NCBI GenBank assembly: GCA_964016885.1
Contig: OZ024742.1
Coordinates: 102,734,001-102,798,000 of the forward strand
Reading direction: 5' to 3'
Length of the DNA: 64,000 bases
DNA from: Eledone cirrhosa
Lineage: Eukaryota
Position numbers and translations under genes: made by a program
Notes under the pieces: model-generated
What the model saw: only the letters and a program-made list of their open reading frames with translations
Database searches by the model: none
What the model was told of the DNA's origin: nothing
Shown: piece after piece, positions 20,601 to 32,138 of the stretch
Layout: the number at the start of each line of letters is the position of its first letter
How positions within the stretch are numbered: the first letter of the stretch is position 1

Positions 20601-20700
20601 TCTGGGTCAAAAGCATAGCACACACTTTTTCCTCTTTGTTTTTCTTTGATTAATCCTTAAAACTTACCATCATTCCGTTGGTATACATCTATTATGCAAT

Positions 20701-20746
20701 TTACACCTGATGAGATCACTGGCCACTGAAATGTGCATAGAGTTTA
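20701..20746 (+). ncRNA. Degenerate hammerhead ribozyme
   Basis: CTGATGA (20707), GAAA (20728), T-GTGC-A, TA. Stem II appears to have lost its 5' arm and stem I pairs poorly. Confidence 0.45.
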
Positions 20747-21043
20747 CAAAGGAAATTTAACATATTTGGCCTCCTGTCATTTCACTTTATATTATATATA
20801 ATAAAGTACCAGTAATGCACTGGATAATTGCTGGCCTTGTGCCAAAAGTAGAAACAATTATATATATACATATATATATATATACTGTATATATATATAT
20901 ATATATATATAGTCCAGAATTAGCCGTCGAAACGGCTTGAGCTCAGCTGTCGGGGTCTTACTGGTTCCTATATATATATATATATATATATACTGTATAT
21001 ATATATACTGTATATATATATATATATATATATATATATATAT

Positions 21044-21355
21044 ACGATATTAAACAAATGGAAACTACATTTATAAAACCATATTTATTTCATTATATAT
21101 ATTTCAGGGATATCATATTAAAAATATGGTATGCCCTCTTCAGACAAAATACAATATATAAACAGTTTTATAAATAAATTTGACATACCTTGGAAAATTT
21201 ACAACTTCCATTTAAAAAGTTGTTATATGGTTTTATAAATGTAGTTTCCATTTGTTTAATATCGTAAAATACTTCAAAATCTGTTGAGTGCTTTTATATC
21301 AGTTATAAAAATATTTACTCGTTGTAACCCAACAATTTTAAATAAAATTTTTGCA
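21044..21355. mobile_element. Non-autonomous Penelope-like fold-back element in (TA)n
   Basis: 41-bp inverted repeats at 21044-21084 and 21225-21265, an internal HHR, a unique tail, and (TA)n on both sides. Confidence 0.65.
21086..21151 (-). ncRNA. Minimal type I hammerhead ribozyme
   Basis: Minus strand: TATTTTGT CTGAAGA GGGCATACCATATT-ttt-AATATGATATCCCT GAAA T-ATAT-A TA ATGAAATA. Confidence 0.75.
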
Positions 21356-22206
21356 TATATATATATATGAATATGTATGCATGTATATTTATGTATAATC
21401 ATTGACACTGTTTAACATCTATTTTCCATGCTTGCATGAGTTAAATGGGTTATCACATTCTGAGAGGCTAGACTGGTTAGGTGACCACATTTCTATATCT
21501 ATCTATATATATATATGTATCATCATCATCATCATCGTTTTATGTCGGTTCTTCCACGCTAGAATGGGTTAGACGGGTTGTCCTTTTGTGGGCAATGTTA
21601 GGTCGGCTGACCTTGTCTTGCTCATACGGGAACTGATTCTGGCTTGATTTCTACAGCTGGATGCCCTTCCTAACAGAACCTCATTTACAGTGAATGCTGG
21701 GTGCTTTTTTCCGTGGCGCCTACACGTCCACTTTACAGTGTGGGCTGGGTGCTTTTTTTGCTGTGGCACCTCCACGACCACCTTGCAGTGGGGGCATATT
21801 GCTTATATGCTTCAGCTTCGGCTTGTTCCCTTGGGAAGTTGGGTCTTATATATATGTATATGTATATATATATATATATATATATACGTGTGTATAATTG
21901 TATATGTATATATATATATATATATATATATATATATATATATATATATATATATATATATATGTATATATATATTATGTCAGGTCACCAGTTGGTGCTA
22001 CTAGTAACATGTATCCCAGTACAACCTGTCTCATGGTCGGGTCGTTGGCGACTAAACTGGCAACCCCACCAAGGTTTCTTGGTGAGGAGGGTGACTTTGG
22101 ACATCCTGCAGGACTAAATAGTGAAGTTTTAAATCAACATATTAATTAAGTTGATTTAAAACTTCACTATTCACAAGTGTTTTTTAAGCTTCATATCATG
22201 TATCCC

Positions 22207-22277
22207 TATTTTATCTGATGAAAACGCAGATATCATCCAATGATGATATTTGTTTTTGAAATGCGCATAATAAAATA
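22207..22277 (+). ncRNA. Minimal type I hammerhead ribozyme (Penelope-like)
   Basis: Stem I is TATTTTAT/ATAAAATA, followed by core CTGATGA, a long stem II (GCAGATATCATC-caat-GATGATATTTGT), GAAA, a palindromic stem III T-GCGC-A and an AUA cleavage triplet (cut after 22269). Confidence 0.85.
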
Positions 22278-27819: not shown

Positions 27820-27897
27820 CTCTCTCTCTCTCTCTCTCTCTCTATATATATATATATATATATATATATATATATATATATATATATATATATATAT

Positions 27898-28473
27898 ATA
27901 TGAAAAAGTGAGTCCTTCATCAGTGACCCTCCAACCGTCCTAGGCATTTCATCGCTTTAAGGGCCATATGCCTCAGGTTGGTGCGAACAACGGCTAAAAA
28001 AAGTCGTTGGGACACGTAAACAAAGGGGACGCCAGGGTAACAACAAAAAGGTTTAAGCAACGGAAAGTGAGAAGAAATAGACAAGTCCCAGATCTCTATG
28101 AATATAAACTCGGTGAAATCGTGAACAAGAGACAAAAGACCATCAAACCTGGTTGAAATGTGAGCAAGGAAAGAATTTCGCCCAAGTTTGACGGGGGGGG
28201 GAAAAAGAGAGAGATAGAAAGGAGAGAAGAGGAAGAAGAAGAAGAAGAAGAAGAAGAAGAAGAAGAAGATAAAGGGGTCTGGTCTACGAATTCGGTAAAC
28301 GTAAGTTTTGTGAAGTCGCAGACGAAAGAGACTTTTTTTAGCCGTTGTTCGCACCAACCTGAGGCATATGGCCCTTAAAGCGATGAAATGCCTAGGACGG
28401 TTGGAGGGTCACTGATGAAGGACTCACTTTTTCATATGTATCCCATTTGCAACGCCGCAGCTCCATTATTATC
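27898..28473. mobile_element. Non-autonomous element with 108-bp perfect inverted repeats in (TA)n
   Basis: 27898-28005 is the exact reverse complement of 28330-28437. The spacer is 324 bp and contains (GAA)n; there is a short extension beyond the right repeat. Confidence 0.7.
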
Positions 28474-29313
28474 ATATATATATATATATATATATATATA
28501 TATATATTAGTTAGTAAAAAGGAAAAGAAAATGCTGACAATTTTTTCCCAGTGAAAAATAGTTTAATTAGGAATAAGTATAAATTAGTAATAAGTATTAG
28601 TTAGTATTTAGTTTTAAGTTTTTACCGGTTGTGCATTTCTTATGCTTTTCAAAAATAATTTTGAGATAAAGTGCTCGTGATTTTTGCTCTAATATATATA
28701 AGTGTGAAGACTGCGCAGTTTCACCCTTATTATTTATTTAATTCATTCATTCATCCAGCAATATTGATGAAGGGTGGACACCACATATATATGTGTTTAT
28801 ACTTATGTATCTATAACTATATGTATTTTCTATAATTTGTCATAACTCCCGTATGATTGAATAAAAAATTAGGCTGAAATAGACTGCTTCTTCTAGCAAC
28901 TCTGTTACTCGCCAACAGTCTACCCTTTACTATCCCTTAGTATTGACCTTAAAACCATGTGATAATTTTCCCTTTAGAAAATTTAACTGGTAGCGGTCAG
29001 TTCGGGGAATGTGTCCCTTACACTGAAGGACTCTTGACAAGCTAACTACCTCACAGCTTGAGTGCACTTTAACTGTGCAGTTTGGACTATGAAGAAAATT
29101 TAGGGTTTTTTGTCTATTTGCTCTTCACACTTATAATTGTATATAGATCTGATTAATTGATTATTTAGTTAATTCATTCATCGAGCAAAACTGGTGAGGG
29201 ATGGACACCACACATATATGTTTCTCTCTCTCTCTCTCTCTCTCTCTCTATATATGTATATATATATATATATATATATATATATATATATATATCTATC
29301 TATATATATATAT

Positions 29314-29526
29314 GAAAATGTTCAAGACCCTGGCGGCAGAGCTCAAGCCGTTTCGACGGCTATTTCTGGACTAAATTCAGAATTTAGTCCAGAAATAACC
29401 GTCGAAACGACTTGAGCTCTGCCGTCGGAGTCCTGAATATTTTCCTATTACCCACTCTACTATCCTCAGTATTGAGTACTCTGGTGCGTTATGGTCCACC
29501 TGGTTCCTTACCACACTTCCTTCGTT
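29314..29526 (+). mobile_element. Fold-back element containing a hammerhead 3' half (family of 26616-26793)
   Basis: Hairpin at 29314-29444 with GTC GAAA CGAC-TTGAGCTCT-GCCG TC GGAGTC and the same tail TTTTCCTATTACCCACTCTACTA. A truncated third copy lies at 20911-20970. Confidence 0.65.
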
Positions 29527-32138
29527 ATATATATATATATATATATATATAATGTATGTGTGTGTGTGTGTGTGTGTAAAAGGTAAACAGAAATAACAAA
29601 AATAACAAAACAAACGGTCACAGTTCATGGAAGAAATATATTTTTATATGTGTGTGTGTGCGTATGTGTGTGTGTGTATGTATGTGTGTGTGTGTGTAAA
29701 AAGTAAACAGAAATGACAAAGCAAACGACAGAGTGCAATAAACGAATGTATTTGTATAACGCTTGAAATAATAGGAAAAGAGTCATTACGTTTCGAACAA
29801 TAGTCATTCATCAGAAGATAGAGAAATAAAAGATGAAATAGAAAGATAGAGAGTGGGAAGGGGAAGAAAGGGAAACACACTCACACATTTATGCAGTTAT
29901 ATATGCAAATATATTCATTTTTAAAAATTCATTAGTTATACGTTACAGATAAATAAGCAGTGTGTGTATGTCTACATATGTTTCTATACATATCAAAATA
30001 TATGTATGCCTGTATACATGCACATACACGTATATTTACGTACACACATGCACAGATGTGTGTATAAGCACATACACATGTATGTAGATATTAACATATA
30101 TTAGTATACATATATAACCACGTTTACATTTCCACACTCAAATTAAAAAAACAAGTATGCATAAATGTATATACACAAATACAGACATGTGTATATATAT
30201 ATACACACACGTACACAGATATATACATGCATTCATATATACATGCATACATACACGTACACAGATATATATATATGTGTTGTTTCCTTGAGCAAGACAC
30301 TTTATTTCACATTGCTCCAGTTTACTCAGCTGTAGAAATGAGATGATAGGGACCCAGTCCCTATCATTCCACTGCAAAGAGGTTGTGGAGGTGCCACGGC
30401 AAAAAAGCACCCAGCACTCACTGTAAATGAGGTTGGTGTTAGGAAGGGCATCCAGCTGTAGAAATCAAGCCAGAATCAGTTCCCGTCCCACCCTTGCAAG
30501 CAGGGAAAAGCGGACGAAAATGAAATGAATGATTCATATATACAGATACATGCATACATAGATCTATACATGCATTCGTACATACACAAATACATACATA
30601 CACAGCTATATACATGCTGTTATGCATACTAAGATACATATACACCCATACAACACACACACACACGCAAGCACACACACAACACATACACACACATGCA
30701 TGTAATATGAAACTTTGAGTTGTTGACTGACCTTAACATTTAAATTTCTTTTTTTTTTATTTGAAAATAAATAAGAATTCTGATCACTACCCCCTACTGA
30801 AAACAATCACAACAACAAAAATCCCAATAGATATATATATAAATAAAATAACAGATACAACCTCCCACACACGGAGGGAGAGGCTAAGCATTTCAAAGCT
30901 ATCAAATCTCCTTAAAAGCTAGCTGTAAAACTTCTGTCAAGCCTTGTACTGTGGGAGTATATTGAGCCCTTTACTTTGTAATATTAGGATCACCTATATT
31001 TATACACATATACACACAGATATATAGTCACAAACTCATACAGACTCAGACACACACACATATATATATAGTCACAAACTCACATAGACAGACACACATA
31101 TTTATATAGACACAGACTCACACAGACAGGCACACACATATATAAAGTAAACACACAACAAACATATATGTATATATATATAGTCACAATCTCAGATATA
31201 CACATAGATATACTGTCACAAATGTGCATGGACATACATACACACACACACACACACACACACATATATATATATATATATATATATATATATATATATA
31301 TATATATATATATATCTGTGTATGTATATATATATATAAAGCATGCATACACTTAGCCAACACGCATAGATATATAGCTACAGACACACAAATAGTCATA
31401 AACTCACACATAGACACACACATGCATAAAGCATGCATAAACACAAACACACATATATAAAGCATGCACACATAAACTGAAACACAGTTTGACAACAACC
31501 TAGAGTCAAACAGAGAAAGCCATCCTGTCACCTTTCTCAGCTTGCAATTATCTGGCAATCTGTTTCACTGTTTCACATATCATCTACCCCTGGGTTGCAC
31601 TTGGGGTCAGAGTGGTAGCTAGGGATTGGGAAAGAGGGACAGATGCTTTTGTACATAGATTCAGGGTGTGTCTTCAACTCACCACTACACACGGTTTTAC
31701 ATATCATCATCATCATCATTTTTACGTCAACTTTTCCATACTGGTATGGGCTGGACAGGACTTTTTGAAAAAATTGTTTTACAGTCAGATGTCCTTCTTG
31801 ACACCAACGCTTTTAGTTGCTTCTTACAACATACTGGGATATGGTGTACTTATTTAAAGCCACACTCACACACACACATATTAGAAAGTAAGCTTTTTTA
31901 TATATCCTACATGGGTAAAAATATAAGAAAAAGAAGTTGAAAATACAATTAGAGGCTTTCAGAAGGTTTACCTTCTTAAAGACTCTAATTGCATTTTCAA
32001 CTTTTTTCCAATATAATGTTTGCTTTATGTTCAGTATTTGATATGGGGTTTAGTCTTATAATTCTTTGAATTTGGTAAACTTTGTTCCTTTTCACATTTC
32101 CCGAAGAAATCCAGTTATATGTATTATGTCTTGTGTTA

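Follow-up and report, generated by a model that had tools for sequence, protein, structure and literature searches.

What kind of element leaves hammerhead ribozymes, whole and broken, between (TA)n microsatellites? The question is raised by a 64,000-nt stretch of the 3.0-Gb genome of Eledone cirrhosa (assembly GCA_964016885.1, contig OZ024742.1, positions 102,734,001 to 102,798,000; hereafter the window, which starts at C3:102,734,001). Within it, positions 20700..29820 (the region) had been described in an earlier note as a hotspot of unique, mostly unrelated islands, each made of a hammerhead or part of one, an AT-rich tail and a (TA)n tract, and had been interpreted as a community of non-coding, ribozyme-processed, retrozyme-like mini-elements. 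The computational analysis reported here partly confirms the observation and partly supports the interpretation. Judging from sequence comparison, it is probable that the islands are truncated, often folded-back pseudo long terminal repeats (pLTRs) of protein-coding Penelope-like elements (PLEs) of the Hydra clade, inserted into (TA)n, and that two conserved bulged hairpins of the element RNA, H1 and H2, set two starts of reverse transcription. Published work already accounts for most of the finding as first put forward: solo hammerheads from truncated PLEs in (TA)n are on record, and so is the Hydra clade itself, of which the elements are new members. The twin hairpins are the new part.

Hammerhead cores in the region

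A type I hammerhead descriptor was applied to the region and to 300 dinucleotide shuffles, with microsatellites removed. The region holds three matches against a shuffle mean of 0.01 (maximum 1; none of the 300 shuffles reaches 3), which places the motifs far above shuffled expectation. The three matches are complete type I cores at 21143-21094 (-), 22215-22269 (+) and 27737-27775 (+, with the U4C variant), all with the self-complementary stem III that the earlier note had claimed, and the predicted 3′ cleavage products of the first two begin at 21093 and 22270. A fourth complete hammerhead found by the descriptor lies outside the region, at 62488. The core at 22647 has CUGAUGA, GAAA and UA all in place, with a product predicted from 22704; it misses the descriptor because of mismatches that open stem II, and its stems I and II form in the predicted fold. 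The coordinates given earlier for complete cores and cleavage sites hold, three by descriptor and 22647 by its core and predicted fold.

The degenerate cores that had been listed at 20707, 23225 and 29790 belong to decayed or truncated members of families in which other copies have the complete hammerhead, and the 3′ halves at 20911, 22540, 26685, 28705 and 29404 are likewise truncated or decayed copies of families with full hammerheads in other members. Copies elsewhere restore full hammerheads for families G, H, I, J, D and K. The core variants are U3.A8 with a long stem II in D and K, U4A in J and U4C in E. In the young families core and stems are intact. An Rfam search of the window returned no hammerhead family among its 111 matches up to an E value of 1; its mir- matches were rejected as microsatellite noise.

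Dispersed families and their density

The islands are not unique, since ten island queries of the genome returned 37 to 3836 first-look candidates each (A 1799, B 692, C 495, D 3836, E 2153, G 2363, H 1053, I 3609, K 37). Top copies are 97-99% identical in B and E and 73-90% identical in C, G and H; family C, with copies 79-90% identical, is old, and the young families are highly repeated in two sequencing runs. Several independent families are indeed present, as had been claimed, although the islands are less unrelated than stated: A, B and the copy at 62488 have a common stem I, the islands at 20911, 26685 and 29404 belong to the single family D, and one tail hairpin is common to A, B, D, E, I and J. 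The targeting of (TA)n is also borne out. Among the 25-30 top copies of each family, a set that includes the window's own copy, 18-30 have a microsatellite directly 3′ (A 30/30, B 29/30, C 28/30, D 30/30, E 29/30, G 21/25, H 18/25, I 26/30), compared with 23.6% of random positions.

Descriptor matches occur at 3.2 per 10 kb in the region, against 0.17-0.18 per 10 kb in the remainder of the window and 60 kb of flanking DNA. The region is also rich in (TA)n, with 32 tracts per 10 kb against 19.5. In a genome sample of forty 10-kb stretches chosen by round coordinates (400 kb, 0.013% of the genome), the descriptor finds 38 hammerheads, against 0-1 in five shuffles. The word hotspot is therefore too strong: the region is dense for its neighbourhood, yet 5 of these 40 arbitrary stretches hold at least three hammerheads. 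At about one hammerhead per 11 kb, a rough extrapolation from the 400 kb gives roughly 280,000 motifs in the genome. The region holds thirteen insertions from 11 families in 9.3 kb, a family count biased by queries that were drawn from the region itself; a family BLAST measure of the hotspot was rejected as biased. The simplest reading of the dense region would be nested insertion into TA tracts.

Coding elements that carry the repeats

Copies of families A, B, D and E extend 0.8-1.7 kb upstream into a same-orientation open reading frame (ORF) for reverse transcriptase (RT) and endonuclease (EN). The loci with such links are L346-L348 for A, L212, L008 and L020 for B, L134, L141 and L365 for D, and L211, L219, L360 and L361 for E; for J, L498 provides the ORF start only. 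The same repeats also sit directly ahead of the ORF start in A, B, D, E and J. Because the repeats occur both downstream of the ORF and directly before its start, they are pLTRs. ORF-linked copies were found for these five families, and a decayed ORF-like start follows family H in other copies. The Penelope-like origin proposed earlier is supported by these links to RT and GIY-YIG ORFs, whereas the description of the islands as non-coding mini-elements does not stand, since longer copies continue into a protein-coding ORF, and in place of a community of non-coding parasites A, B, D, E and J appear as the ends of coding Hydra-clade elements.

Published Hydra-clade elements (Craig et al. 2021, PMC8557442) are PLEs with a C-terminal EN, the motifs RW[K/R] and DKT, a CxCX5C linker, no CCHH, a hammerhead and (TA)n insertion. 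File S1 of that paper includes Hydra-1_Obim from Octopus bimaculoides with a (TA)n preference, and its File S2 gives the hammerhead of this element. In the present genome, a sister family has intact 910-aa ORFs with RVRWK, DKT, YRDD, CxCX5C, YIG and CxxC..E, and its N-terminus gave 9855 first-look candidates. Family E has RVRWR and DKT, L486 has RVRWK and DKT, and A, B, D and J have RxRW or RxKW. The CxCX5C linker, the lack of CCHH, and the CxxC and CxH that flank the catalytic E and N were read in the B endonuclease and in L486-L490. The arrangement of RT and C-terminal GIY-YIG in a single ORF is intact in the sister family, and in A, B, D and E the RT and EN parts are collinear with the pLTR. 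A Pfam search of the E and B fragments gave no match, and the homologues P0001 and P0080 gave a Pfam GIY-YIG match. On these motifs the coding families are assigned to the Hydra clade. Neptune/Nematis was considered and ruled out by the clade definitions, as the CX2-5CxxC linker and CCHH are absent from the B and L486 proteins.

Further elements were seen at the loci examined. An intact 823-aa PLE ORF of another clade, with a CxxxxCxxC linker, CCHH and weak Pfam matches to RVT_1 and GIY-YIG, is inserted in L212 (L212:4518-6986, minus strand); in the 400-kb sample its relatives account for 6 kb and Hydra-type coding DNA for 10.9 kb. L443-L472 belong to an autonomous Hydra family that is young and combines a U3.A8-type core with both hairpins and intact ORFs. 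L497 is a short tandem J unit in which the ORF start is fused to the 3′ untranslated region (UTR) and the hammerhead and both hairpins are kept, and L506 consists of tandem 204-nt B units with both hairpins and no hammerhead.

Insertion ends and fold-backs

Each family with enough copies has two sharp 3′ ends, a short and a long one. Their distances from the cut are, for example, 43 and 132 nt for B, 49 and 138 nt for A, and about 24 and 105 nt for D. The two ends are paired in fold-backs. Of 29 B loci outside the window, all selected for having the long end, 21 have a second arm placed head to head with the first, and in the hit table each of these second arms terminates at the short end. Partner arms likewise terminate at the short end in the hit tables of A and D, and five pairs of family E each consist of one long and one short arm. 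The position of the fold-back junction varies between copies, as expected if the stubs are made one by one.

The 5′ ends do not agree with the claim that the islands are ribozyme-processed, since they mostly fall away from the cleavage site: 5′ ends within 2 nt of it were seen in 0/20 copies of B, 0/36 of D and 5/49 of J. In D, 35 of 36 copies are without the 5′ half of the core. Instead, the 5′ ends form clusters relative to the cut, at -120 to -126 in 12/20 copies of B, at -43 to -49 in 12/49 of J, and at -35 to -47, inside loop II, in 21/36 of D. Approximately three quarters of 100 listed copies of family I start at stem I, with a TATA-like box about 30 nt upstream in longer copies. The analysis of 5′ ends relative to the cut covered B, D and J; in A, related subfamilies blur the ends. 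The clusters are likely caused by the start of transcription. The limits of the inserted unit do not appear to be set by hammerhead cleavage, a reaction that may process read-through transcripts.

Twin hairpins in the tail and leader

The order of the element is hammerhead, short end, 5-11 nt, H1, spacer, long end, approximately 5-12 nt, H2 and ORF start. H1 is a bulged hairpin that mostly lies 5-11 nt behind the short end. Its closing stem has four pairs (ACTC/GAGT, GCTC/GAGC or GTTC/GAAC), its inner stem and loop vary, and two nucleotides bulge out on the 3′ side. In 13 of 15 families H1 was found in half or more of the long copies, against a shuffle rate of 1-5.5% (B 36/38, A 34/39, E 9/14, D 62/69, I 14/16); the test was restricted to families other than c4 (G), c6 and c8, which have no second end, and c18, which has no long copy. 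Because the descriptor had been designed on these families, it was applied unchanged to 77 metagenome loci encoding relatives, of which 53 have a hammerhead. There, H1 was present in 41 of 60 hammerhead tails of at least 90 nt, compared with 5.2 expected.

Covariation was assessed in 34 distinct H1 hairpins chosen by their outer anchors alone. At the register of the 2-nt bulge, inner pairs 1-3 are Watson-Crick in 33/34, 28/34 and 18/31 hairpins, against 15.8, 12.0 and 8.5 when shuffled, and several pair types occur at each position (exchanges of T-A/C-G/G-C and of A-T/G-C/T-A/C-G). Registers 0, 1, 3 and 4 gave no comparable pairing signal. For the window copies of B, D and E, the fold of minimum energy is predicted to be the bulged stem, and only in B and E does its stability exceed that of shuffles.

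H2 lies behind the long end and just ahead of the ORF, 15-70 nt from the ATG, and the gap from the long end to H2 measures 5 nt in J, about 6 in D, 7 in both B and E, and 8-9 in A. The searches for B, A and J specified the first letters of H2, and the continuation, the full hairpin and the ATG emerged unasked, in two copies each; in family A, 40 of 44 matches to the H2 search have a common continuation. H2 and a decayed ORF start are likewise found in other copies of family H. The metagenome set includes 19 leaders in which the ORF starts 138-187 nt behind the cut. Two hairpins were found in 16 of these leaders, a single hairpin in another, and none in the remaining two under the pattern used, with a TCTC/GAGA variant visible.

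Proposed mechanism and alternative explanations

In the mechanism that we propose, the element protein would nick both strands of a (TA)n tract and bind H1 and H2 of an RNA that begins in the pLTR. Synthesis of complementary DNA (cDNA) would be primed just 5′ of each hairpin, and both cDNAs would extend toward the 5′ end of the RNA and then join head to head. The tail would be nothing other than the distance between the hairpins, because the two cDNAs start at H1 and H2 before joining. Most products would halt at or before the RNA 5′ end and become inert stubs, and the stubs would accumulate because every insertion leaves (TA)n on either side as a target for the next one. For a Poseidon-clade PLE, extension of both strands has been seen in vitro from a pair of internal starts that bound its tail, with hammerhead cleavage unneeded, and its protein is a predicted dimer that nicks AT-rich DNA (PMC11167929). 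In its most general form the proposal is that a clade-wide hairpin pair (RYTC-stem-loop-stem-NN-GARY) would serve as rulers for a dimeric telomerase-related RT, with one start a few bases upstream of each hairpin and one RNA copied from both nicked (TA)n strands, which would explain the one-sided tail, the head-to-head insertions and the approximately 280,000 motifs of the genome; we lean slightly towards this wider form.

Several points speak against the proposed mechanism. No in-line ORF was found for C, G, I and K within the copies examined. C and I carry H1, and H1 is present in only 9/26 long copies of C and 1/4 of J. The H1 rates within this genome are not independent, as the descriptor was built on its families, and the 41/60 count and the shuffle tests overstate independence, because close relatives and the two pLTRs of one and the same element occur among the metagenome tails; 2 of the 41 matches, which lie well away from the usual position, are probably due to chance. 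Covariation in H2 is weak (22/22, 10/22 and 9/15), and pattern searches found no recurrent H2 continuation for C and I, where exact patterns may miss old families. The pairing of ends was taken from the hit tables of B, E, A and D and is not a count over all families, and the exact ends are uncertain by several bases where AT-rich letters of the element meet (TA)n. In addition, the inverted J piece of the window ends behind H2, contrary to the end rule. A third insertion end behind H2 was considered and rejected, as none of 100 listed J copies and none of 50 B copies ends in (TA)n within the 12-17 bases shown.

One alternative is that the islands are non-autonomous, ribozyme-processed, retrozyme-like mini-elements that replicate as short units by means of PLE enzymes. 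Most copies are indeed short, four families are without an ORF tie, the deleted tandem J unit at L497 retains the hammerhead and both hairpins, the majority of listed I copies begin at stem I, and retrozymes are reported to be pLTR-derived (preprint 10.64898/2026.07.22.740005). However, five families join coding ORFs, there are no head-to-tail hammerhead tandems among the copies of the window, the fold-back junctions are copy-specific, and the 5′ ends avoid the cut, half of the core being lost from nearly all D copies; this explanation is accordingly quite improbable. The families without an ORF link and the short deleted tandem derivatives of J and B (L497, L506) leave room for what may be a minor non-autonomous component.

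The stubs may also be those of Hydra-clade elements while the hairpins act as DNA or at another step, such as recognition of the element's own pLTR by the endonuclease, ribonucleoprotein assembly or translation of the ORF, in which case their spacing would be a side effect. The closeness of H2 to the ATG is in favour of such a role, as are the near-invariant outer strands in the metagenome set, which would fit a protein reading sequence, and the requirement of the D. virilis endonuclease for the tail in order to recognise Penelope DNA (as summarised in PMC11167929). We nevertheless think this unlikely, since both ends keep a similar short distance to their hairpin at any tail length (about 65-170 nt) and G.U pairs, which fit RNA, are present in the stems. 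A further alternative sees in the region no chance pile-up but a special locus, which would be either a selected cluster or a source locus; in its favour are the number of insertions and families and a density approximately 20-fold over the flanks by descriptor. Against this, the family count is biased by the choice of queries, 5 of the 40 arbitrary stretches equal or exceed the region by descriptor, and the region is rich in (TA)n and holds no ORF-bearing copy, which makes a special locus very improbable. The reading that we prefer thus remains that of truncated Hydra-clade pLTRs with two hairpin-set starts.

Insertions of the region and neighbouring features

From left to right, the region begins with a family H stub at 20560..20800 (+), in which the core at 20707 has a 17-nt deletion in stem II, and a family D stub at 20907..20959 (+) consisting of the 3′ half of a U3.A8 hammerhead; both stop at the short end. 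The family A fold-back follows, with an inverted arm at 21043..21226 (-) that has a complete hammerhead (core 21143, cut after 21094) and the short end, and a forward arm at 21225..21345 (+) that has the long end and H1 at 21271-21289. The family B stub at 22117..22403 (+) includes an inverted bit at 22117-22145, the core at 22215 with the cut after 22269, H1 at 22320-22344 and the long end. Long ends are also found in the family I stub at 22439..22558 (-), with a hammerhead 3′ half and H1 from 22501, and in the family C stub at 22598..22906 (+), with its core at 22647 and the cut after 22703. Family J at 23185..23382 (+) has an inverted piece at 23185-23221 (minus strand) that holds H2, a forward arm cut within the U4A core, and H1 at 23296-23341.

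Two family D fold-backs each have a short inverted arm and a long forward arm: one at 26618..26800 (+) with H1 at 26735-26758, and one at 29310..29525 (+) with the inverted arm at 29310-29377 and H1 at 29454-29477. Family E has an inverted arm at 26847..27073 (-), which had gone unreported, with the long end and H1 at 27001-26968, and a forward arm at 27069..27819 (+) with a 3′ UTR of about 660 nt, the U4C core at 27737, the cut after 27775 and the short end. Family K at 28690..29148 (+) has a short, internally deleted inverted piece at 28690-28730, which is the half noted at 28705, and a forward arm with a decayed U3.A8 hammerhead. Family G at 29681..29875 (-) carries a minimal hammerhead of the GAAAC-GUH type and a single end type, and no H1 was seen in it.

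Other repeats were observed in the window. An A-related fold-back insertion with the complete hammerhead at 62488 (-) occupies 62387-62753. A head-to-head insertion between (TA)n tracts at 27901-28470, also absent from the earlier note, has one short and one long arm, with GAAA preceding CTGATGA in the arm. At 28511-28693 (-) lies a separate (TA)n-ended family with 1890 candidates, two ends and no hammerhead recognised. The repeat at 26290-26580 (+), which we take to be similar to a short interspersed nuclear element, has CTGACGA followed by GAAA, with stems I and III unconvincing by eye. A candidate reverse-transcriptase end of a long interspersed nuclear element, judged by eye, is located at 24120-24960, an array of 8 copies of a 77-bp tandem repeat at 51546-52171, a tandem pair of a dispersed 185-bp repeat at 57447-57823, and a full-length U12 minor spliceosomal small nuclear RNA (Rfam, 128 bits) at 58454-58603 (-).

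Comparison with known systems

The families described here have in common with the Hydra clade (PMC8557442) the RW[K/R], DKT and CxCX5C motifs without CCHH, the C-terminal GIY-YIG, the canonical hammerhead and (TA)n, as well as the inverted 5′-truncated copy with a one-sided tail, an insertion pattern reported in PMC8557442 and PMC3846280. In A, B, D and E the 3′ UTRs measure 0.8-1.7 kb, which differs from elements that are "generally <3 kb" in PMC8557442, and the tails of 65-170 nt differ from the 30-40 bp given for PLEs in that paper. Unlike the Hydra elements in PMC8557442, those found here include U3.A8, U4A and U4C cores and reach a very high copy number. No mention of twin hairpins was found in the parts of PMC8557442 cited, and no description of them in literature searches that left most subscription papers and Repbase reports uncovered.

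The minimal PLE hammerheads of Cervera and de la Pena (2014, PMC4209133) likewise have a palindromic stem III, occur as solo motifs from truncated PLEs in many families per genome, and include a U3-A8 variant (in Cercyon), and opposite-strand hammerhead pairs 100-700 bp apart are reported there as they are seen here. In number, the roughly 280,000 extrapolated motifs of the present genome compare with 2,000-9,000 per genome in PMC4209133 and up to 120,000 in axolotl (PMC7229834). Metazoan non-LTR retrozymes (PMC7229834; preprint 10.64898/2026.07.22.740005) are similarly short, AT-rich, non-coding and PLE-related with a type I hammerhead. However, retrozymes are head-to-tail tandems that give circular RNAs, whereas the copies in the window are solo or head-to-head stubs of coding elements, and the definition of a retrozyme as non-coding with no autonomous form does not describe A, B, D, E and J. 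The Penelope of Adineta vaga (PMC3846280) also has head-to-head inverted pLTRs, junction palindromes and an optional tail, but it belongs to the Penelope/Poseidon clade and makes target-site duplications, and microsatellite targeting was not found described in the parts of that paper cited.

The closest parallel for the proposed mechanism is Poseidon_Ac (Frangieh et al. 2024, PMC11167929), which has in common with the elements described here two starts bounding the tail, an AT-rich target, the use of both strands and a dispensable cleavage, all of which are deduced from sequence in the present case. In Poseidon_Ac both starts are inside the ORF and the stem-loop is AC-rich, while here both would precede the ORF, and a conserved bulged hairpin of its own would lie immediately 3′ of each start. 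How PLEs choose internal starts and acquire a one-sided tail was left open in PMC8557442 and has been partly answered in PMC11167929; if true, the hairpin rulers would account for both the one-sided tail and the head-to-head insertions. For an assay of target-primed reverse transcription with a relative of telomerase, the twin hairpins provide a concrete RNA signal that can be mutated and a natural template of short length, and they can be used as a marker for the pLTR ends of Hydra elements. The frequency of about one hammerhead per 11 kb suggests that these elements make up a large share of the microsatellite-rich DNA of this genome.

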